This document shows, piece by piece, positions 1,127 through 18,120 of a stretch of DNA of 18,682 bases; positions within the stretch are counted from its first letter, which is position 1; each line of letters starts with the position of its first letter. The notes under the pieces are model-generated. The model saw nothing but the letters and a program-made list of their open reading frames with translations, searched no databases and had not been told where the DNA came from. The translations under genes were made by a program, and so were the position numbers. The stretch comes from a virus (taxonomy: Duplodnaviria > Heunggongvirae > Uroviricota > Caudoviricetes), in the IMG/VR virus record IMGVR_UViG_2778261570_000014; one strand, given 5' to 3'.

Positions 1127-1573
1127 TCAACCCTCAACTTGCTCGATTGTCATGAGAATACTGTAACGTTTACCTTTATAGAGGGTATCTTGCTGGGTGC
1201 AAAGCACACCAAAAGCCTGTTCCTCAGCATCAACAAGCACAAGCGTGTTAAAGTCGTAAGGCGTGTTATCCGGCATTCTTTCTTGAGGGAAGGCTGCATT
1301 GATCGTGATAATCCCATCCACGCTGGACAATATCAGATCGGACACAGCAAACTGTTGAGCGCCACTCAATTTAAAATCGAGCGGAATGTCCGCTATATTC
1401 CAGCCTCCTGCACCATTAGCAGTTACCAGACTAGATTTGCACCAATACGCCTTAGAGATAACAAAACGCGCACCTTTGCCGATCGCCGACTCTGCGCGGC
1501 GTGAATAATAGTAGGAAAGTAATTGCGCCTTATACAGGCGGTTACCATCTCTTGCCTTTAAATTTTCAGCCAT
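1127..1573 (-). CDS. Hypothetical protein (148 aa) immediately upstream of the tail fiber gene; likely baseplate or fiber-associated
   Basis: ATG start at 1573; stop 2 nt from the tail fiber start; co-oriented in the operon. No recognisable motif. The overlapping plus-strand ORF 1139..1504 looks less protein-like. Confidence 0.5.
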   Translation of the reverse strand: MAENLKARDGNRLYKAQLLSYYYSRRAESAIGKGARFVISKAYWCKSSLVTANGAGGWNIADIPLDFKLSGAQQFAVSDLILSSVDGIITINAAFPQERMPDNTPYDFNTLVLVDAEEQAFGVLCTQQDTLYKGKRYSILMTIEQVEG

Positions 1574-1638
1574 ACGAACATAGCCCCTTCATAAGCAATG
1601 AACCAAAGGAGAGTATGCTCAGTTTGTGATTTCCGTTG

Positions 1639-1664
1639 TTCTTCCCCCAAATGCGGGGGAAGAA
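1639..1664 (-). other. Intercistronic stem-loop (10-bp stem TTCTTCCCCC / GGGGGAAGAA, 6-nt loop) directly after the stop of the 281-aa gene
   Basis: Perfect inverted repeat seen in sequence; no U-tract follows on the minus-strand transcript. Confidence 0.4.
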
Positions 1665-1667
1665 TTA

Positions 1668-2513
1668 TTAAACAGATTGAAGGTGGTAATCCAAAGGCCA
1701 CGCATCGAGTGGGGTTACATCAAGATGTAATTGCTTTTCTGCCGTTCGGTTCGGTATGGCATTAAGAGAAATATTGTCTGCCTGGCAGGAGGTATCACTA
1801 CGGGATAGCATATCAGCCATACTCTCAGTAACATAAACACCTTCAATTACCGAAACATCCGTAGACAGGTAATTTAATATTTCTGCCACTTCAGGGAATA
1901 CAGCACTAAGCCGAAACGAGACGCCATCAAAAACAATATGCAATGGCAACAAAGGGGCTATTACTGTTTCGAAGTCAGATAACAATTTCTGCACAGCGGC
2001 TTCTTTATCCTGCTCTCCATATGAGCGATATAGCTTGTTCTGATCAACAACGACCAGCCCCCTTGATGTCAGGAAGAGCTCACCGAATTGAGCCTGTGCC
2101 GTAGGTATTTCTATTTCGGTCGCAAAATATGAACCATAGGGGTGTTTTTCTATATTTACAGGTGCATACAGCGGTTCCCAACTAACAGGAATACAACCGA
2201 ATTCACGCCAGAATGTCTGCTCAATAGGCAAGATAGTACCTTTAAAGTGCACTTCATCTAAACGCTGCGCCAGAAGCATTGGCCTACGGGCATTATCTTT
2301 TTCAGTGATAACGAAAAAACGCCCGTATTCAGCAATGCGGGCATCCATATCCTCACTGTCCATAGTGAAGAAGGATTTTCTGTTACTTATTCTTGTTAAT
2401 ATTGGTTCTACTGCCTCATTCCAGACATCCTGTAAAGCGTCTATAAATGCACTCCAGAGATGTGAATCCTGTTTTACTTTAGTTAATCGTTCCTTAAGCC
2501 AATTATCTTTCAT
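1668..2513 (-). CDS. Putative baseplate protein (281 aa), positional analogue of P2 gpI
   Basis: ATG start at 2513; sits between the baseplate-J-like gene and the fiber-proximal gene. Assignment is by position only. Confidence 0.45.
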   Translation of the reverse strand: MKDNWLKERLTKVKQDSHLWSAFIDALQDVWNEAVEPILTRISNRKSFFTMDSEDMDARIAEYGRFFVITEKDNARRPMLLAQRLDEVHFKGTILPIEQTFWREFGCIPVSWEPLYAPVNIEKHPYGSYFATEIEIPTAQAQFGELFLTSRGLVVVDQNKLYRSYGEQDKEAAVQKLLSDFETVIAPLLPLHIVFDGVSFRLSAVFPEVAEILNYLSTDVSVIEGVYVTESMADMLSRSDTSCQADNISLNAIPNRTAEKQLHLDVTPLDAWPLDYHLQSV

Positions 2514-2523
2514 GCTAACCTCA

Positions 2524-3954
2524 TTACGGGTAAGAAATGCTGAACGTTGAAGATTTTACGTTAAGATAAATGAAGTCATTAAAGTAAACAGCATCTTTCA
2601 TATTTTGTATTGTTATGTCGTAAGACAGAAACATATCCAGAGACTCTATTACTCGCCAAATATCCTTAACTTTTACCTGTGCATAACATTGCTGGGAATC
2701 ATCATCACTCTGTAGTAATAAACTGAATGATGACGAATCACGGCCAAAATTATCTTCCAACGCTGCTTTAATAGCATTTTGAGCATCGTCTATCAGAACA
2801 TTTTTACGTGCAATACCTATAAAATTTATAGTAAATGGCTGTTCATTTGTATCTACATACTCGAACCGCTTGTTCAACTCATTTGGAACATTCTCTAGAG
2901 CTTTCAGTATTTCTGATTTTAGCTGAGACTGGCTTACACCCGGCTTATGTCCGCAAAAGAAAATTTTGTTGATGTTTCGAACGTCAAACCCAGTTATTTT
3001 CTCTTGTAACGCTTCGCCCCAAACGTTCAACCATGAAGTTCCATGAACAACATTCTGAATGAATTGGCGATAATCACCGCCCCATACCACTTGTTCATCG
3101 TATGCAACATAATACTGAGCACGATTTCGAGTTTCTTCTGTAGTTTCCATACCACTACCACCGGTAATGATCGAATCAGTTTTAAACTCTAGTGACTCCA
3201 CATATTGAGCGATATTTCCAGCCGGTTCTAACTTTTGTCCTTCAGCCAAAGTATAGTCGCCAAGGCTAGCCATAACATCGATTCGAACCTGACAGCCTGC
3301 TGGAGGCATCATACCCATAGAACCATCACCAAACTTGACTCCAAGTTGTTCTGTAGGTTTATATGCCAATGAATAGTGCTTACTCTTGTCTCTGGACATT
3401 CTAAATAATGGGTTATATGTCCATTTTTCTTCTACTCCATCTGTAATAACATAAACATCCAGGCTAGAGACTTCTTTTGTTAACTCTCTGGAAAGCAACA
3501 ATGTCAGAAATAAAGTTTCCTTCTCAATATCAAACGTAATGCTAACAGCTTCATGCTGTTTAGTTTCTACGCCAGAAACAGTTCCTCCAGCAGGAATTAC
3601 AACACTGTTAATAATTGCCAAAGGTGTTTGGTCATTGGCAAGCAATTCAGCCCCGGCTGGTAACGTAATATCCCGATCAGTTTTATTTGTTATAGACGTT
3701 GTTCCGTATGAAGCACTAACAAATCGCCCTACGTAGCTACGGTCTTCAGCAACCGCTAAAATACTTGAGCGGCGCGTTGCCGTTGAAATAAGTCCCTCAG
3801 TGAGGCCGCGACTTGCAAATGTACGGGCAATATAAATAAGCTGCGATCCGAATATAGCGTGCATCTGCACAAACTGACTATTTACAAATCGTGACCACCA
3901 TGTATTTTCATTTAACTTGGCGTTAAATTTGTCCAGTAATTCTGTAATCGTCAC
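2524..3954 (-). CDS. Baseplate J-like protein (476 aa)
   Basis: Directly downstream of the gp25/GPW-like gene; C-terminal region loosely resembles P2 gpJ from memory. Apparent GTG start at 3954 overlapping the upstream stop (GTGA), consistent with translational coupling. Confidence 0.5.
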   Translation of the reverse strand: MTITELLDKFNAKLNENTWWSRFVNSQFVQMHAIFGSQLIYIARTFASRGLTEGLISTATRRSSILAVAEDRSYVGRFVSASYGTTSITNKTDRDITLPAGAELLANDQTPLAIINSVVIPAGGTVSGVETKQHEAVSITFDIEKETLFLTLLLSRELTKEVSSLDVYVITDGVEEKWTYNPLFRMSRDKSKHYSLAYKPTEQLGVKFGDGSMGMMPPAGCQVRIDVMASLGDYTLAEGQKLEPAGNIAQYVESLEFKTDSIITGGSGMETTEETRNRAQYYVAYDEQVVWGGDYRQFIQNVVHGTSWLNVWGEALQEKITGFDVRNINKIFFCGHKPGVSQSQLKSEILKALENVPNELNKRFEYVDTNEQPFTINFIGIARKNVLIDDAQNAIKAALEDNFGRDSSSFSLLLQSDDDSQQCYAQVKVKDIWRVIESLDMFLSYDITIQNMKDAVYFNDFIYLNVKSSTFSISYP

Positions 3955-4325
3955 GCGCCCACCCCACTTGATTTCTGCATAACAATATCCATGCTCCCAC
4001 CTTTCGCATAAAAACTAATTAATAAAGAATCTTCAGAAATTGATGTGCAACGAATCCCTTGCACATCCAAACCTGGCAAGTCTTGTCGTAGTTTTTTCAT
4101 CATTCTCCCTTCAATAGCCACTTCAACTATGTGCGAAGTTTCAGAGCCGAATGGTTCATGCTTAAATTCTTCCATTGGACTCCCCCAAGAGGGTAAACCA
4201 TAAACACTCCCTTCAGGGGTTCGTAGCCACTCGTCAAGTCGGGCCATCCATGCTGCGGTACTTCCTTCTGCAATAATGACACCGCTCTCATTCGTTTGAA
4301 GTCTTGCGTCTATTTCGTAAAGCAT
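3951..4325 (-). CDS. Baseplate wedge protein, gp25 / GPW-like (124 aa)
   Basis: Size and motif ...RLDEWLRTPEGSVYGLPSWGS... resemble the P2 gpW motif ...ILRTPVGSRVMRRDYGS... as I recall it. ATG at 4325, 5 nt after the stop of the large upstream gene. Confidence 0.6.
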   Translation of the reverse strand: MLYEIDARLQTNESGVIIAEGSTAAWMARLDEWLRTPEGSVYGLPSWGSPMEEFKHEPFGSETSHIVEVAIEGRMMKKLRQDLPGLDVQGIRCTSISEDSLLISFYAKGGSMDIVMQKSSGVGA

Positions 4326-4330
4326 CAGTA

Positions 4331-7300
4331 TTAATCCTCAAGCAGAGCATCCAGCGACTGGTCATTAATAGTTGTGCTCGCACGTGGTCGCGGCTGCGGC
4401 TGCGATGTTTTGACAACATTATCCGGATCGCCTTTTGTATTGTTCTTGTTCACATTCAGCAGATCGTTCAGGATAGAGCAGATGTTATCCAGCGCCTTCA
4501 ACATAGCAGGATCGTTATTTATAGTGTCAGTAGTTAATGGTTGTCTTATTCCGCTTCGTGCGAGATCGGTTACAGTAGGGAGTTGTGGCGGCATAGCAAG
4601 AAAAGGTTCTTGCACAGCTGAAGCAGAGCCAAATATGGCGTTATTGGCACCAGTTGCTATTCCCCTAATGCTATTAGCGGTTTGTTGAATCCCCCCATTC
4701 AGCCAGTCTCCAACATTTCTTGTTAATGGGCTAATAGCTCGCGCAATCGCACTATTCTGCCCAGTAGACTGCATTACAAGATCGTTCAATATCCCTGTAC
4801 TATCAATCCCCCCAACAAGTCGTGAAAGGTTATCGCCAACGGCAGGAATTACTGCGGTTCCTGTCTGTTTAAGCCCTGACACCGTGGAATCAAATAGCGA
4901 ACCAAAGAAGCTCTTATCCTCACCTGTAACCACCTTGTAGCCGTTGTCATAAATCTGCACATCACTTGGTGCCGTGATAGTTCGTTTTCCAGAGGTAACT
5001 ACTGGCGCAGCTCCCGCCATAGCCTGGCTGATTGCTAGAGCCTGCTCCTGCTGTGGGGTTTTCGGTGCAGGCGCTGCAGACGAAAAGCCCGCCATAGCCT
5101 GGCTGATTGCTAGAGCCTGCTCCTGCTGTGGAGTTTTCGGTGCTGGCGCTGCAGATGAAAAGCCCGCCATAGCCTGGCTGATTGCTAGAGCCTGCTCCTG
5201 CTGTGGAGTTTTCGGTGCTGGCGCTGCAGATGAAAAGCCCGCCATAGCCTGGCTGATTGCTAGAGCCTGCTCCTGCTGTGGAGTTTTCGGTGCTGGCGCT
5301 GCAGATGAAAAGCCCGCCATAGCCTGGCTGATTGCTAGAGCCTGCTCCTGCTGTGGAGTTTTCGGAGTAGAAGGGGATACTTGATCTCCCGGAAGTAGAT
5401 CAATGATTTCTGTATCGTGATTAACAGTGCGTTTTTGTTGTATGGCTGTTGCGATATCAGCCGCTTGAGAAGCTTTTTTAAATCCAAAAGATTTACCGGT
5501 TAAGCCGGATATCTTTTCAGTAAGAGCCTGATCCATTCCTTTCGCTTTTTCGGAAAGCGAAGATATAGAACCAAACGAAGTAGCCAACGCAAAATCCTTT
5601 ACCAGGTCCAGACTTGTTCCAGCAAGGCTGGTAGCCGCGCCGCCAAATAAATTACTTGCACCACTGATTCCGCTTTCATTTATTGCGATTAACCGCTCAA
5701 GCAAACTCGATGGAGAGCCGGTATTAACATCAGCGTTCTCTGGATTAATCGGTTGTGGTTGGTTACCTGTTTTTTGTGGCTTTTTGACTGCCTGGGCATG
5801 TTGTGCAACCTCAATTGGCTGTTGTGTTGCTGTCGGAACGGCATTCAAAACTGGTTGAGCTGGAGATTTTCCATTAGCATATTTTACCTTGCGACCAACA
5901 CTATATTGCGAATCGCGGGCAATTAGCTGACCACCATTTTCTTTCTGAATTTTATTAATCCGCGCCAATGTTTCGTCAGAGAATTGTCCCTCCCATAGAC
6001 CAGTGTTTGTGTTAAATGCTCCAAGTGCGTTCTTAATGAACTCATTATTAACTGCCGGATTTCCGCCTTCTTTCGTCGCAATTGCACGAACTAATTGCGT
6101 CATAACCTCTGGTTTGCTGACATCTATTTTTTCATTAGGCGATACACCAAGATATTTACTGACGTTATCAATATATTGGTTAGTATTGTTCTCATTTGGC
6201 GGTGCCCATTTTGAAATGATGCTGGATACCGTCTGTAACTTCTGATATCCCGCTGCGGCACTGGTGCCGTTGTAATAGCTGGAAACCTGGTTTGCCAGTG
6301 CCCTGATCCCTTCTTCAGGTGTGTTAAATCGCGCAAAACGTTGTTCACCTTTTGCATTTGGCGATTCCAGCGTCGCCCCTTCCTGGTTGGCAAAAACAAG
6401 ATTGCCGAGATTATTATTTCGGTAATTGCGGTTTTTAGCGTTGCTGCCGCCAATATTCAGATCCGCTGCAATGGTGTTGTTGGCAGGTGAACTAAATTCA
6501 GTTGGAGAAGTATACCCGTGCTCACCAACTCCATCCTCGCCATTACGCCCACCTTGTAATTGTTCACCTAGAGAATGAATCGCATCGACAGTTTTTTTGG
6601 TGCCGTCTTCAACAGCTTTTTTTACTTGTTTCGTGTTTTCGTCAGTGGATAAAAATGTATCCTTAAGGCTACCAAAAACAGATTTGGTGATATCTACCGC
6701 GCCGTTAACACCACGAGCAATATCTCCGGTATCAAAATTCTGAAGTTTTTCACCTGCTCTTTCAAATCCTAGCGCAGAAATTCCTTTCCCTATCAAGTTC
6801 GTTGCGCCCGACACCAAGCCCCCCATATCGAGCACATTAGCTGTTGCGTAAGCCGTTTTTTGCTGTTCGGCTACAGCATCATCGTCACTTAATCCAAAGG
6901 CTGCCTTTTGCGCATCTGTATCAGTGTAACCATCTATAGCGTCATATCCCGCCATAGCCAGCGAACCGATGATAGGGATAGCTCTTGCAGCTGTAGAAGC
7001 AGCTGATTTAACACCTATTTTTGCAGCACTTTTGAGGGCTACGGATTCGGTTTTTTTCTTTGCAACAGTTTCACCTGTTTTAACTGTGGCCTCTTCGGCA
7101 ACAACACCTGCTGGCTTAACTGCCTTTGCTGTGTTTTTTGTTTCTTTAGCAATACCCTTAGATGCGTCGCTTGTGGTGCTGATGTCTTTGGCTTTACTAA
7201 CCTTTGTTTTAACAGTCTTTGCAGCTCCGGCACCAGCTCCAGCAGCAGCGGTTCCGGCAGCGGCTTTTTCACCAACAGTAAGGGCTTTTTTCCCCAGATT

Positions 7301-8461
7301 GCGACCTTTCCTTTTCGGTTTGTTCCGTTTATTTTTACCAGCCTGATCGCCAATATTGATTTTATTTCTTCTGCTTGCTCGATTTCTCCAGAGATCACTT
7401 AAGCCGAACTTATTCCCAGAAGATACTGATTTGCGTAGCTTAACTACTTCGTCGGAGACATTTTCCAGACCATCAATTATTTTGTTGTCATTGGTCTGAA
7501 GAATTTTTGTTTGCTCTTCTACTGCTTGTGCTGATTTTGTCTCAACAGCATTATTAAATGCTGTTGCAGAGGTTGCTTTTTGAGTATTAACCACCGCCGG
7601 ATAAGTGATAGCTGGAGATGTCGCTTTCGAAGGTGAAGCCTCACCTTTCCCCTTTTCTACCCATTCTTTAAGAGATTCTGCTTTACCTGTGATCTCTTTA
7701 GTAATGTCGTACATGCCGCGAGCAGCCATCCACAACGGACCACCAGCGCCAACACCTGCGGCATCTGTTAAAGACTCTTCACTGGAAGACTGATTGCCAT
7801 CTACCCCTATAATGGAGCCTAATTTCCGGAGGAAGCCTTCTTGTAGTTTGGCGTCGGCCTTATGTGCTTTCTGCCATTCTTTTTTTCTGGCTATATCTTC
7901 GTTGTTTTTCTGGGATACAAAGCGTCCGTTACTATCCCGAAGCGGTCCTTTTTGGCTTTGGGGGGATTGTGGTTCAAGAGGAGCAGAATTAGCGGCTAAT
8001 GGCACAGAACCTTTCAACTTTTGGGCTGACTGGCGTGATGACGCAAAATGAACGCGCTCTGATGTGTTGGTTGCAACAATGAGACGTTCTTCTCCGTTGT
8101 TGACCTGCGTCCTCCCTTTTTTCATCGGAAGGCGTTTTATATATGGGTTAGCTTGGGTATTCTTGGCATCATCAGAGACATAGGGTTCGCTTGCTATGAG
8201 TCTACGGGATAGTCTTTGACTTACTTTACCTTGATTTTCACCAAGTTGAGTTATAGACCCTCTACCAGAGAGAATGGCGTCTTTGATCTCAGCAAGAGCG
8301 TTAAGTTCGTTTGTGCTCGCCCCCTGAATAGCGTCAATTATTGCGATACGGTCTTTATTCTCTTTCAAAATAACCTCTCTTTTGCCAGCGGCGATCAACG
8401 TTTCCCGGCTTGAGCTTTGTATTTTTCTTCCAGGGCTTTTGACATATGGAGTGCTCGCCAT
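4331..8461 (-). CDS. Large virion protein (1376 aa), tape-measure-like or structural injection protein
   Basis: Long ORF immediately upstream of the baseplate genes. Contains a Lys/Ala/Gly-rich low-complexity region, a globular segment (NNLGNLVFANQEG...GIRALANQV...WAPPNENNT...) and five 25-aa tandem repeats. ATG at 8461. Confidence 0.6.
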   Translation of the reverse strand: MASTPYVKSPGRKIQSSSRETLIAAGKREVILKENKDRIAIIDAIQGASTNELNALAEIKDAILSGRGSITQLGENQGKVSQRLSRRLIASEPYVSDDAKNTQANPYIKRLPMKKGRTQVNNGEERLIVATNTSERVHFASSRQSAQKLKGSVPLAANSAPLEPQSPQSQKGPLRDSNGRFVSQKNNEDIARKKEWQKAHKADAKLQEGFLRKLGSIIGVDGNQSSSEESLTDAAGVGAGGPLWMAARGMYDITKEITGKAESLKEWVEKGKGEASPSKATSPAITYPAVVNTQKATSATAFNNAVETKSAQAVEEQTKILQTNDNKIIDGLENVSDEVVKLRKSVSSGNKFGLSDLWRNRASRRNKINIGDQAGKNKRNKPKRKGRNLGKKALTVGEKAAAGTAAAGAGAGAAKTVKTKVSKAKDISTTSDASKGIAKETKNTAKAVKPAGVVAEEATVKTGETVAKKKTESVALKSAAKIGVKSAASTAARAIPIIGSLAMAGYDAIDGYTDTDAQKAAFGLSDDDAVAEQQKTAYATANVLDMGGLVSGATNLIGKGISALGFERAGEKLQNFDTGDIARGVNGAVDITKSVFGSLKDTFLSTDENTKQVKKAVEDGTKKTVDAIHSLGEQLQGGRNGEDGVGEHGYTSPTEFSSPANNTIAADLNIGGSNAKNRNYRNNNLGNLVFANQEGATLESPNAKGEQRFARFNTPEEGIRALANQVSSYYNGTSAAAGYQKLQTVSSIISKWAPPNENNTNQYIDNVSKYLGVSPNEKIDVSKPEVMTQLVRAIATKEGGNPAVNNEFIKNALGAFNTNTGLWEGQFSDETLARINKIQKENGGQLIARDSQYSVGRKVKYANGKSPAQPVLNAVPTATQQPIEVAQHAQAVKKPQKTGNQPQPINPENADVNTGSPSSLLERLIAINESGISGASNLFGGAATSLAGTSLDLVKDFALATSFGSISSLSEKAKGMDQALTEKISGLTGKSFGFKKASQAADIATAIQQKRTVNHDTEIIDLLPGDQVSPSTPKTPQQEQALAISQAMAGFSSAAPAPKTPQQEQALAISQAMAGFSSAAPAPKTPQQEQALAISQAMAGFSSAAPAPKTPQQEQALAISQAMAGFSSAAPAPKTPQQEQALAISQAMAGAAPVVTSGKRTITAPSDVQIYDNGYKVVTGEDKSFFGSLFDSTVSGLKQTGTAVIPAVGDNLSRLVGGIDSTGILNDLVMQSTGQNSAIARAISPLTRNVGDWLNGGIQQTANSIRGIATGANNAIFGSASAVQEPFLAMPPQLPTVTDLARSGIRQPLTTDTINNDPAMLKALDNICSILNDLLNVNKNNTKGDPDNVVKTSQPQPRPRASTTINDQSLDALLED
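5010..5366 (-). repeat. Tandem direct repeat, 75-bp unit in about 4.75 copies, inside the large virion protein gene
   Basis: GCCATAGCC recurs at 5016, 5091, 5166, 5241 and 5316 (period exactly 75). The middle copies are identical and the first differs at a few positions. Encodes (APAPKTPQQEQALAISQAMAGFSSA)n in frame. Confidence 0.9.
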
Positions 8462-8515: not shown

Positions 8516-9337
8516 TTAATAATGGTTAGCCATCCATTCAGATCTAATTGATGGGATAAACTCTCTATTGAGAAAGGGGACGTACAGTGTGGTTGTCACA
8601 TCTGCACCCTCCTTAGCGTTTTTGCAATGTTGCGGAGGCAGGATCAGTCGGCTTGAGCCTCTCTCAATAGACATTTTCAGGCCGTGGCGTAGGTCTTTTT
8701 GCATAAGCTGTATGCGAGCCACAAGCGGGGTAAATTCGGTTTCAAGCGCCATGCTTTCAATGATGTCAAAGCGTCGGTTAGCGGCCTGCGTGAAGTCCTC
8801 CGGATCGTCTTCAAGCGCCGTGCATAAAGCGAGTTCAGCAATTCGCATCCGTGCTACGCCAGCACTGTATTCGGGAGTTTTCATATCAGGAAGTGACGCT
8901 CGCATTCGTTCAAGGAGTTCCGCGCCTTTCCCGGTTAATGGTTTAAGTATCCAGTCAGTTGGTACTCCATTTACTGGTACGTTGGTTTTCACGTAAGGAG
9001 GTACAGTGAGTATTTCTACTGTTTGGGCCAGGTCGCTCAGGTTAATATCTGCATGATGCGTATTACCGCAGTGACTGCACTCATAGGAGTAGGTCATTAC
9101 TGCATCGGGGCGCGAATTAACAAATATCCACCAAAGAGCAGTTCTGCGGTCCTGAACTGTCCAGTTAGCACTGTCGTTAATTTCACCATCCTGCATAGAG
9201 TTAAGGTACTCTGTAGTCGTTGCCTCATCTTCTGCCGGGTTCAGGTCAGAATATTTCAGCGCATCCTTCACGGTAGGGGCGTGGAACTGAATTTCTGTCT
9301 CAGGACGGGAAGGCAATGGGAATTTTGGAATGTTCAA
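8516..9337 (-). CDS. Hypothetical protein (273 aa) with a C-x2-C...HH...N motif; divergently oriented from repA
   Basis: ORF with apparent TTG start at 9337 and a GGAGG Shine-Dalgarno 5 nt upstream; first in-frame Met is about residue 47. Contains YECSHCGNTHHADINL. Function unknown. Confidence 0.5.
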   Translation of the reverse strand: MNIPKFPLPSRPETEIQFHAPTVKDALKYSDLNPAEDEATTTEYLNSMQDGEINDSANWTVQDRRTALWWIFVNSRPDAVMTYSYECSHCGNTHHADINLSDLAQTVEILTVPPYVKTNVPVNGVPTDWILKPLTGKGAELLERMRASLPDMKTPEYSAGVARMRIAELALCTALEDDPEDFTQAANRRFDIIESMALETEFTPLVARIQLMQKDLRHGLKMSIERGSSRLILPPQHCKNAKEGADVTTTLYVPFLNREFIPSIRSEWMANHY

Positions 9338-9442
9338 TTATTCCTCCGAAAAGCAGGTATCTGTTCATTTTCCAGAGGATAGGGAGTGTGTGATTTGCGA
9401 TGGGGATTGAATGAAGATCTTTGCCGGTCGAGAAGCGATTAT

Positions 9443-9461
9443 TGAGGGTGATTTTTACACC
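9443..9461 (+). promoter_or_regulatory. Inverted iteron copy upstream of the origin, probable RepA operator
   Basis: TGAGGGTGATTTTTACACC is the reverse complement of the iteron consensus with two mismatches. Confidence 0.5.
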
Positions 9462-9479
9462 TTAAGTGACGCTACTCAC

Positions 9480-9488
9480 ATATCCACA
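9480..9488 (+). promoter_or_regulatory. DnaA-box-like site (ATATCCACA, 8/9 match to TTATNCACA)
   Basis: Seen in sequence directly next to the AT-rich tract and iterons, the usual Rep_3 origin layout. Confidence 0.45.
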
Positions 9489-9545
9489 GAGTATTTTTAT
9501 AAACCTTTTTCCATTTTTAATCCTTTTTAGATCCTTTTTAGGCGT
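9489..9545 (+). promoter_or_regulatory. AT-rich tract with short phased CCTTTTT-type repeats, candidate DNA-unwinding element
   Basis: CCTTTTTCC, ATTTTTAA and TCCTTTTTAG (twice, 11 bp apart) between the DnaA-box-like site and the iterons. Confidence 0.45.
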
Positions 9546-9583
9546 CGCTGGAGCCAGTAGTGGCGCGGGCTGTAGAGGAGGCT

Positions 9584-9701
9584 GGTGTAAGATTTGCCCT
9601 CAATTAAATACGATCGGTGTAAGATTTGCCCTCAGAAGGTGTAAGATTTGCCCTCAAAAGGTGTAGTAATTGCCCTCAAAGTGGTGTAAAAATTGCCCTC
9701 A
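9584..9701 (+). repeat. Iteron array: five direct 19-bp repeats (consensus GGTGTAAGATTTGCCCTCA) upstream of repA
   Basis: Copies at 9584-9602, 9616-9634, 9638-9656, 9660-9678 and 9683-9701. The first three are identical; copies 4 and 5 differ at 2-3 positions. Spacing 32, 22, 22, 23 bp. Confidence 0.85.
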
Positions 9702-9725
9702 CCATTTGAAGGATCACACAGGGTT

Positions 9726-10481
9726 ATGAACAGAGCGGAATTAACAGCAAAAGCCGTCAGCCTGATTGAGTCAGCGACACCTATTAGTCGTAGTCTGGCA
9801 CAAGCCAATGAGATCACGGAGGCTGCTTATCACCTGACTCGCGACCAAAAGCGACTGTTGTTTATTGTGGTGGGAAGACTTCGCTATGCTTCTAAGGATG
9901 GCGTTCTTGGTTCAGGTGCCTGTGAGTTGACGGTCAACGAATATGCAGAGATGTATAATTTGCCCTCTGCTGAAGCCAGCAAGGATATTCGTAAGGCCAT
10001 TTCAGGGCTTAGCGAGAAGAAAGTTACGATATATAACCCTGATGAATCGACCGAATCAGAAGACAGTTATGAGTCTTATCCCTGGATGATTAAGGATGCC
10101 TATTCACCACGGCGCGGGACTTACATTATTCATCTTAATCCATATCTCATGCCGTTTTTTACTCTGCTTGATAAGAGATTCACAAGGCTGAATTTTACCG
10201 AAGTATCTCGCCTTACAAATCCTTATTCTATGCGGCTTTATGAGTCCTTATGCCAGTACAGGAAGGATGATGGAAGCGGCTTTGCCATACTTGGCGTCGA
10301 ATGGATGCGGGAGCGTTATGGGTTACCAAAAAGCTATCAGCGGTATGCCGAATTTAAGAGAAGTTTTTTAACGAAGGCTGTAGCAGAGATTGAAAAAAAT
10401 ACAAAAATGAAAATAGTCTTCTCAGAGGTGACGGAAGGCGGCAAAGTTACCAGGATAAAATTTACCTATCAGCAGTCTTAA
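9726..10481 (+). CDS. repA: Replication initiator RepA, Rep_3 family (iteron-binding)
   Basis: 251 aa from ATG 9726 (the ORF track starts at an in-frame TTG at 9693 inside iteron 5). Flanked by iterons; resembles pSC101 RepA from memory (LTRDQKRLLFIVVG..., NPYSMRLYESL..., C-terminal KVTRIKFTY). Only gene on the plus strand in a minus-strand cluster. Confidence 0.85.
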   Translation: MNRAELTAKAVSLIESATPISRSLAQANEITEAAYHLTRDQKRLLFIVVGRLRYASKDGVLGSGACELTVNEYAEMYNLPSAEASKDIRKAISGLSEKKVTIYNPDESTESEDSYESYPWMIKDAYSPRRGTYIIHLNPYLMPFFTLLDKRFTRLNFTEVSRLTNPYSMRLYESLCQYRKDDGSGFAILGVEWMRERYGLPKSYQRYAEFKRSFLTKAVAEIEKNTKMKIVFSEVTEGGKVTRIKFTYQQS

Positions 10482-10772
10482 GGGCAATTTTTACACCCCT
10501 CTCAAGGTGTAGAATTTGCCCTTAACGATCGGCAATTGAGGGTAATTTTTACATCTTAATTGCATGTATCTTGTTATTAGCAAGTTGTGTTTTTATATAA
10601 CGTATTGATATGTAAGGATTATGTAAAAAACGCCCTCAACCAATATCGTGCGTATCGTGCATTCTTATTGCGCTTTTTTATTATCATTCACTGTGTTAAC
10701 TGATTGATATTATTGAAATATGTAAAGAATGCCTTCATTGCAGATGGATTGATGATGTAAAAAATGCCCTCA
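10479..10772 (+). repeat. Downstream iteron cluster: at least six iteron-like sites, mixed orientation and degenerate, in an AT-rich region
   Basis: Inverted copy 10479-10497 overlapping the repA stop, direct 10506-10524, inverted 10537-10555, and degenerate direct copies at 10621-10638, 10720-10737 and 10754-10772. No ORF in this region. Confidence 0.7.
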
Positions 10773-10862
10773 AAATTGCGCTACCTTCCCTACCCGCTAT
10801 CGTTGAGGTCGTGGGTGCTGACGGGAAATGAGCAACCCTCCAGCACACATAATTAAAGCTAT

Positions 10863-11570
10863 TCAGAATTTGATCACTCCACTCACAGCCCCCTTTAACG
10901 CGCTTGTAGCCATGCCAGCGGCACCGTTGACCAAAGCAGAAACACCTGAGCCTGCGGATGTGTATTTCTGGAAAGTGATTGGATATGACAAGAACTCTGA
11001 CACCTGGTCTCGTGAGCGGGTGATTTCCCCAAGTTGAGTGGGGAATACGCGCATTTCCTCTTCCAGTTCTTTACCGCCATCCTGAGTTACCCGGTAGAGC
11101 CGGATCTTCATTAGATATTCAGGAGGAAGGTTTATTGTTCCGTCCGGGTTTGTCACGCGGGAACGACGCTCTTTGAACCAGTTCATGATCTTGCCGTCTT
11201 CGGTATCCCTTACGGTCATCGTGACTGGTCCGGCGGTGACGTAGGTTGGCTTGCTGAACTCTACGCTACCTATCACCTTGTTTTCTGTCTCGATATTTCC
11301 GCTGCTGTAGGTGATATCCTTCACGAACATATCGAAACCGTTCAGACCGTCCACTTCAACCGTCCACTGCCATCCCTGGGCGTAACGAATACGCATAGCG
11401 GCAGCAACAATATTTTTCCCGTAGGCAATATCGCTGCTGTAGTTCCCACTTACCCCGCCGCCGGATATTGCTTTATCCAGAATGTCGCTAATGAGGTTGC
11501 TGGTGAATGATTTTGTGTTAAATGACAGTGCGGTGGTCAACGTTCTGCCAACGCTGCTGAAAATACTCAC
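10863..11570 (-). CDS. Hypothetical virion or tail protein (235 aa)
   Basis: Co-oriented with the tail genes; apparent GTG start at 11570 with GGAGG upstream. No motif recognised. Confidence 0.5.
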   Translation of the reverse strand: MSIFSSVGRTLTTALSFNTKSFTSNLISDILDKAISGGGVSGNYSSDIAYGKNIVAAAMRIRYAQGWQWTVEVDGLNGFDMFVKDITYSSGNIETENKVIGSVEFSKPTYVTAGPVTMTVRDTEDGKIMNWFKERRSRVTNPDGTINLPPEYLMKIRLYRVTQDGGKELEEEMRVFPTQLGEITRSRDQVSEFLSYPITFQKYTSAGSGVSALVNGAAGMATSALKGAVSGVIKF

Positions 11571-17962: not shown

Positions 17963-18120
17963 GGTTAAGCCCTAAATTCGGGCGCGGCGTGAAGGTTCTT
18001 TTGACGGGCTAACAATACCTACTTTGTGATTTAGTCAATAGGTTTAGTAAAATAAAATCTATTAACACGCATGTTGTTATGTGATTTAATTTTAATTTTC
18101 TAACACAAATCATTAGAGTT
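17963..18120. promoter_or_regulatory. AT-rich divergent intergenic region, probable promoters for the capsid gene and the plus-strand gene
   Basis: Markedly AT-rich; TTGACG at 18001-18006; TGTGATTTA occurs twice (about 18026 and 18081). No confident -10/-35 assignment. Confidence 0.35.

Follow-up and report, generated by a model that had tools for sequence, protein, structure and literature searches.

A P1-type RepA iteron beside tub in a D6-like phage-plasmid is probably the relic of a displaced replicon

P1-type iterons at the 3' end of tub

The 15-mer CCCTCCAGCACACAT at 10836-10850 (plus strand) of the window, the whole 18,682-nt stretch of DNA analysed here, is very probably the vestigial terminal incA iteron of a P1-type (oriR-repA-incA) replicon that was replaced by a RepE-type replicon. 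The window belongs to a D6-like phage-plasmid of the P1 family; it shares 96.6% identity with Escherichia phage D6, and as much as 99.7% with phage-plasmids of E. coli and Shigella. On the minus strand the 15-mer reads ATGTGTGCTGGAGGG, which the first-pass annotation had taken to be the core of the P1 incC/incA iteron, correctly so. The incA/incC region of the P1 genome (NC_005856) contains 14 features annotated 'RepA binding iteron', with the consensus GATGTGTGCTGGAGGGAAA, and the exact 15-mer lies within five of them (copies 1, 4, 6, 13 and 14). Scanning with a weight matrix made from the 14 iterons gave two adjacent P1-type sites:

10833-10851, minus strand: P1-type RepA iteron relic TATGTGTGCTGGAGGGTTG, with the 15-mer as its core; 23.7 bits
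10810-10828, plus strand: decayed P1-type iteron CGTGGGTGCTGACGGGAAA; 18.1 bits

The score of the first site falls within the 18.5-31.3 bits of the genuine P1 iterons. Each base of the 19-mer is present at that position in at least one P1 iteron (copies 3 and 4 have T1, and copy 12 has the TTG tail), and by sequence the site agrees with the consensus within the variation of the 14 copies. It is non-coding, situated 11 nt past the tub stop codon (10863-10865, minus strand) and ~60 nt past the last iteron of the resident replicon (10754-10773).

The match had been described as a lone one, which it is not. The second site is convergent with the first across a gap of 4 bp, and in the 40 bp to each side of the first only ~3e-5 matches as strong as this are expected. 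The right half of the second site, TGACGGGAAA, is similar to P1 copy 10, and its left half has TGGG where all 14 P1 iterons have TGTG. Because this invariant motif is missing, only 10833-10851 qualifies as a P1-type iteron. Judged by sequence, one iteron of the window is competent for P1-type RepA and the other is decayed. No other P1-type iteron above 13.1 bits was found by the matrix scan of the D6 genome.

That the 15-mer resembles a P1 iteron by chance is so improbable that it can be set aside; the annotation, too, had called a chance match improbable. The 10836-10850 copy is the sole exact one in the window on both strands, and no exact match appeared in 200 dinucleotide-preserving shuffles. 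With as many as three mismatches allowed, 0.42 matches are expected in the window, a figure that a chance origin could accommodate; it does not account for the second site 4 bp away, nor for the positional homology of the site with the full incA array of sister plasmids described below.

The resident RepE-type replicon and its slot

On the minus strand, the D6 genome has the order capsid gene 23, sheath gene 22, gene 21, pmgG, bplB, pmgC and tub; these are followed by a plasmid rep gene on the plus strand, and then by pmgB, sit, pmgA, bplA, 16 and R, again on the minus strand. In P1, pmgB (44492-45373) and tub (45388-45999) are annotated only 14 bp apart, and the ~1.5-kb replicon of the D6-like elements thus occupies that gap. 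The replicon of P1 itself is located elsewhere, between gene 23 and upfA, together with parAB. The possibility that the same sequence exists at the pmgB-tub junction of P1 was discarded, since the 14 bp there leave no room for it, and a 121-nt blastn query against phages matched D6 only. The features of the slot in the window are:

8516-9337, minus strand: pmgB, left flank of the slot (D6 annotation)
9394-10835, plus strand: presumed swapped cassette, consisting of the RepE-type replicon and the decayed relic iteron; no homology to the P1-type sisters (blastn)
9442-9702, plus strand: origin side of the resident replicon (repeat families D1/D2, matrix scan, sequence reading)
9442-9461: inverted iteron of the resident origin
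9480-9488: DnaA-box-like ATATCCACA
9584-9702: five direct 20-bp iterons, GGTGTAAGATTTGCCCTCAA, at ~22-bp spacing up to the start of rep
9726-10481, plus strand: rep, 251 aa, Rep_3 initiator with WH1 and WH2 (Pfam, PDB 1REP, D6 orf42)
10478-10773: downstream control array, the counterpart of F incC and P1 incA, with six iterons of the resident type in both orientations
10478-10497, minus strand: control-array iteron
10506-10525, plus strand: control-array iteron
10536-10555, minus strand: control-array iteron
10620-10639, plus strand: control-array iteron
10719-10738, plus strand: control-array iteron
10754-10773, plus strand: control-array iteron
10863-11570, minus strand: tub (tail tube protein), right flank of the slot (D6 annotation 'similar to P1 gene tub'; ORF list)

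The resident cassette has the make-up of a Rep_3/RepE-type replicon: an initiator with WH1 and WH2, direct repeats upstream of its gene and a second array downstream. The Rep protein matches the Pfam models Rep3_N (2.9e-29) and Rep3_C (9e-16) and is a close homologue of the F-plasmid RepE (PDB 1REP, E = 1.4e-73). Twelve resident iterons scoring 19-30 bits flank the gene, and the origin (9442-9545) combines an A+T-rich stretch with the inverted iteron and the DnaA-box-like sequence. The plan is that of mini-F ori2-repE-incC, i.e., iterons overlapping the region upstream of rep, a RepE homologue and a downstream array; the window iteron is a variant, which we take to be like the F iteron. By MOB-suite the replicon belongs to rep_cluster_1704. 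Its identification with the PlasmidFinder 'p0111' type proved wrong, as the Rep of pO111_2 has no similarity to that of the window. P1 RepA also matches the Rep3 Pfam models, weakly, and there is no BLAST-detectable similarity between it and the resident Rep.

Two minor observations concern the resident iterons. An iteron-like sequence, GATGTATAATTTGCCCTCTG, is found within rep at 9950-9969 (18.5 bits) and is kept in all the RepE-type lineages examined. In NZ_CP095127 (3817-5560, corresponding to about 10756 of the window) an IS200/IS605 element with tnpA and a second transposase gene is inserted in the control array; it splits the last resident iteron, and the P1-type relic pair beyond it is intact.

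The search for further P1-type features suggested in the first-pass annotation was productive in part: it yielded the decayed iteron at 10810-10828, and neither a P1-type repA nor P1-type par genes in the window. The possibility that a P1-type repA is present elsewhere in the element was rejected, as tblastn of the window and the complete D6 genome turned up no homologue of P1 RepA. P1-type par genes are likewise absent from both; the partition genes of D6 are exclusively of non-P1 type and lie away from the slot.

Compared with P1 incA, the window shares the iteron core, with a 19-mer that is inside the natural variation, and its convergent sites mirror the switch from forward to reverse iterons within incA. 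It differs in having neither a cognate repA nor oriR, in having one intact and one decayed iteron, and in the location of the site between pmgB and tub rather than between gene 23 and upfA. The site is not part of an array flanking a cognate repA; as the homologue of a terminal incA iteron (see below), it is a former rather than a current member of such an array.

P1-type sisters, relic lineages and layered replicons

A sensitive PLSDB search with 10440-10960 of the window as the query found four plasmids (H86-H89) in which homology to the window starts exactly where the 15-mer does, at 10836. Three of the four were analysed as sister loci (NZ_CP067430, NZ_CP035876 and NZ_CP044179; L006-L008). 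They have a D6-like backbone with sit, pmgB, tub and pmgC in the order of the window, and between pmgB and tub they encode a 286-aa initiator that is 83.7% identical to P1 RepA. The same P1-type replicon is present between pmgB and tub in the IMG/VR loci L025, L037 and L064. Upstream of repA, the sister plasmids carry a DnaA box, GATC-rich repeats and five P1-type iterons; downstream there are seven P1-type iterons (incA), three forward and four reverse. The terminal incA iteron, TTTCCCTACAGCACACATAattaaagc, directly adjoins the tub stop, in exactly the position that CAACCCTCCAGCACACATAattaaagc has in the window, and the terminal iteron of L037, CTTCCCTCCAGCACACATAattaaagc, contains the exact 15-mer. 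In blastn comparisons of the window with L006 and L037, homology extends up to 9393 and resumes from 10836, placing the boundaries at 9393/9394 and 10835/10836. Since homology restarts at 10836 and the placement at the tub stop is the same, the 15-mer and the terminal incA iteron are positional homologues. One of the origins proposed for the match at the outset, a scar left by replicon replacement in a P1-like backbone, is well borne out by the P1-family backbone, by sisters with a full P1-type replicon and by this restart. The replaced P1-type replicon sat between pmgB and tub, not at the gene 23-upfA position of P1.

A P1-type maintenance module that is complete, par genes included, occupies the slot in the IMG/VR record IMGVR_UViG_3300009011_000012 (L104, 3336-8883), a deeper relative within the D6 clade whose Tub is 80% identical. 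The order there is pmgB, RepA, incA, ParA, ParB and tub, with identities to P1 of 85% for RepA, 57% for ParA and 44% for ParB. The presence of repA-incA-parA-parB in the slot argues that the P1-type maintenance module is old at this location. Among 33 IMG/VR loci encoding Tub relatives, 15 have a RepE-type cassette with a P1 relic and two a RepE-type cassette without one; a full P1-type cassette is found in three, a P1-type cassette with parAB in one and a p0111-type cassette with a RepE-type relic in two, and the slot has no replicon in the remaining ten.

The relic has been retained to different extents. RepE-type lineages other than that of the window have three, two or no P1-type relic iterons, a variation which indicates that the relic is decaying and dispensable. 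The most extensive relic is in NZ_CP091837 (L009), a divergent lineage with the resident-type replicon and 69% identity over the intergenic region. It consists of a forward iteron, GGTGTGCGCTGGTGGGATA, a 23-nt spacer and a reverse iteron, TATGTGTGCTGGAGGGCTA, adjoining tub; compared by eye, the spacer matches the one that separates the convergent iterons in the incA of L006. A third, more decayed copy lies upstream and is paired with 10810-10828 (plus strand) of the window in alignment A1. The relic of the window looks as if it had arisen from one of this kind by deletion of 49 bp. NZ_AP027688 (L011) has TATGTGTGCTGGCGGGATG as its reverse iteron, and its forward copy is down to 12.4 bits. The reverse copy of CP042620 (L065) has GGCAGG where 14 of 14 P1 iterons have GGG. 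The plus-strand decayed copy is also seen in L011, L065 and L009, further decayed there than in the window, and the left half of the minus-strand iteron, TATGTGTGCTG, is invariant in six lineages.

No P1-type iteron was found in NZ_CP104667 (L010), in the E. marmotae plasmid NZ_CP099353 (L012) or in the IMG/VR loci L084 and L086. L084 and L086 share the resident iterons of the window, and their Rep has 98.4% identity to the window's. The loss of the relic in these lineages, together with the loss of TGTG, means that the resident replicon does not need the relic, which is eroding. The window and L009 share, without a mismatch, a block of 22 nt, CCCTCCAGCACACATAATTAAA, in surroundings of non-coding DNA that are only ~60-70% identical. 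This conservation, which speaks to some extent against a mere vestige, may reflect constraint, linkage to tub or (recent) recombination with P1-type plasmids; as the block runs beyond the iteron into the 3' flank of tub, it gives no specific argument for RepA binding.

Two further observations bear on the mobility of the region. In contrast to the 98.4% identity of Rep, the Tub of L084 and L086 is only ~84% and the PmgB ~91% identical to the window's, which indicates that the cassette moved between diverged backbones after their split. In CP055626 (3915-5490, corresponding to about 10854 of the window), a ~1.6-kb insert encoding an annotated Icd-like protein and a Rha-family regulator lies right after the relic iteron and before the tub stop; the insert is present in some RepE-type plasmids.

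A third replicon type also occupies the pmgB-tub slot. It belongs to MOB-suite rep_cluster_2164, and its iterons are approximately ATGTTGACTATGTGCGA. Its Rep, of 294 aa, shares 85% identity with that of pO111_2, which is the 'p0111' reference of PlasmidFinder, and 41% with P1 RepA. The p0111-type replicon was located at:

L065 (CP042620), 2500-4340
L066 (NZ_CP085065), 1530-3260
L085 and L087

These plasmids have four to five RepE-type iterons downstream of their own control array and no RepE-type rep. CP042620 has also kept the P1-type pair, outermost and adjoining tub; in the replicon region of pO111_2 that was examined there are no P1-type relic iterons of at least 14 bits. The order of newest replicon, RepE-type relic, P1-type relic and tub is consistent with serial replacement, which would give this layering provided that every new right-hand junction lay within the control array of the replicon before it.

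The following course of events accounts best for these arrangements. A P1-type replicon would formerly have been present between pmgB and tub in the ancestor of the D6-like phage-plasmids. An F-like replicon, with a RepE-type Rep_3 initiator and its own origin and control iterons, would have displaced oriR, repA and most of incA, presumably by illegitimate recombination with the right-hand junction inside the incA array, leaving behind the incA iterons nearest to tub. The composite cassette, new replicon plus relic, would then have spread among D6-like backbones, presumably through homologous recombination in the flanking phage genes, and the relic would have been trimmed and mutated to differing extents in each lineage. 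From parsimony and layering, as opposed to a dated phylogeny, we infer that the P1-type replicon came first and the RepE-type second. The RepE-type cassette bears P1-type iterons at its edge, and a matrix scan for the reciprocal relic, RepE-type iterons inside a P1-type cassette, found none. The same order is suggested by L009, which keeps more of incA beside a RepE-type replicon, by the full P1-type module of L104, and by P1-like elements with Tub at most 65% identical, in which the slot has no replicon.

Possible functions and relation to known systems

As neither the window nor the D6 genome encodes a P1-type RepA, the site has no cognate protein and is most likely idle in the plasmid's own replication. 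With one competent repeat and no cognate initiator, it does not amount to a functional control or titration locus of the incA/incC type. Most likely the relic has no function at all, given the missing cognate initiator, the single competent repeat and the lineage-specific loss. It is nonetheless predicted to be able to bind the P1-type RepA of a co-resident plasmid, and a titration site had been the other origin proposed for the match. The relic might then be a decoy or incompatibility determinant, which binds the RepA of a competitor and titrates or handcuffs it; the carrier, being of RepE type, would be immune and retention of the relic would be adaptive. Such a role appears unlikely. In its favour, the 19-mer stays inside the range of natural variation seen among functional P1 iterons, the incA of P1, with its RepA-binding iterons, is annotated as an incompatibility determinant, and the iterons of a predecessor have been retained twice, P1-type ones by the RepE-type replicon and four to five RepE-type ones by the p0111-type; the invariance of TATGTGTGCTG in six lineages would also fit. 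However, there is one competent iteron against the 14 of P1, an added load that would be ~7%, and in a plasmid which, like the P1-family prophages, is presumably low-copy, the effect of one extra iteron should be small. Invariant positions are missing from the second copy, CP042620 has lost the invariant GGG and whole lineages have no relic; the conserved block, moreover, is offset from the iteron and includes flanking non-iteron DNA. That the relic is decayed or absent in lineages with a 98% identical Rep disfavours titration in particular. As a general proposition, a change of replicon could keep the old iterons as a one-way incompatibility weapon against relatives that still use the old replicon, to which the carrier itself is immune, and this too is improbable. 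If it were true, the layers of p0111-type replicon, RepE-type iterons and one to two P1-type iterons would be successive rounds of this process, and the older layers would decay once their target replicon type had become rare.

The site could instead act in cis for the resident replicon or the late operon, as a dimer operator for the RepE-type protein or as a hairpin or terminator between rep and tub, its likeness to P1 iterons being incidental or derived from a distant common ancestry of the two Rep_3 systems. The two sites do make up an inverted repeat, though an imperfect one, the initiators both belong to the Rep_3 (WH1-WH2) class and both types of iteron begin with G-N-T-G-T. The inverted repeat has no T-run, however, and its RNA fold is no better than that of shuffled sequences (z = -0.24); a search for an intrinsic terminator, i.e., a G+C-rich hairpin followed by a T-run, found no terminator-like site at 10800-10862, and a terminator or structured RNA at the inverted pair was rejected on these grounds. 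The rep promoter region is on the other side of rep, within the five direct iterons; the sites of L009 are 23 bp apart, not 4; and the element is absent from L010 and L012 as well as from L084 and L086, despite the near-identical Rep and the same iterons of the latter two. A cis-acting role is therefore very unlikely, well below even the incompatibility role, and the vestigial incA iteron remains the preferred explanation.

Plasmids are well known to contain remnants of former replicons; in F, a multi-replicon plasmid, the truncated RepFIC is one such vestige. The window resembles it in having a non-functional fragment of a former replicon beside a working one. It differs from remnants of the RepFIC kind in that only one or two initiator-binding repeats are left and in that the complete form persists at the same locus in sister plasmids. 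The relic is accordingly a molecular fossil and not a new mechanism, and as biology it is modest.

Its interest lies in what it records. In a clinically common family of phage-plasmids it points to a direction for the swap, with the P1-type replicon followed by the RepE-type and in some elements later by the p0111-type, and it identifies the pmgB-tub gap of the D6-like elements as a slot at which whole replication cassettes are exchanged. Since one backbone can carry three replicon types, each of which may hold stray iterons of a foreign type, replicon-based typing is affected. The exchange of cassettes also bears on which P1-family elements can share one cell.

Replicon switching as such is known in this family. 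In two published surveys, P1-like phage-plasmids are described as having two replicon types, IncY repA and p0111 repB, with frequent switching across the phylogeny (PMC11165635, PMC9603915). The event in the window is of the same kind, but the swap is in the D6 subgroup, at another genomic slot, and involves a third, RepE-like type (rep_cluster_1704). A paper on D6-like plasmids says of repB only that it is 'associated with iteron sequences' (PMC6799933). Leftover P1-type iterons, a three-way exchange at pmgB-tub and layered relics are not mentioned in the passages of these three sources that were searched; the search did not extend to the D6 genome paper of Gilcrease and Casjens (2018).

A few additional observations concern the late genes around the slot. 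In P1, tub and pmgB are adjacent, downstream of the late promoter LPsit; in the window they are separated by the replicon region (9338-10862), in which rep is on the plus strand. A matrix made from ten annotated P1 late promoters gave no match near pmgB or the cassette that could serve pmgB, and the sole match of at least 14 bits in the window is at 18097-18115 (minus strand), upstream of gene 23. Late transcription of pmgB and sit could possibly proceed by read-through antisense to rep or from an unrecognised promoter. A 69-aa plus-strand ORF (10828-11037), with its ATG within the relic pair and antisense to tub, is probably spurious. The sit ORF (tape-measure/transglycosylase; 4331-8461) encodes 1376 aa, compared to 1260 aa in D6 (3783 nt) and 1140 aa in P1, and sit thus appears to be a length-variable gene.
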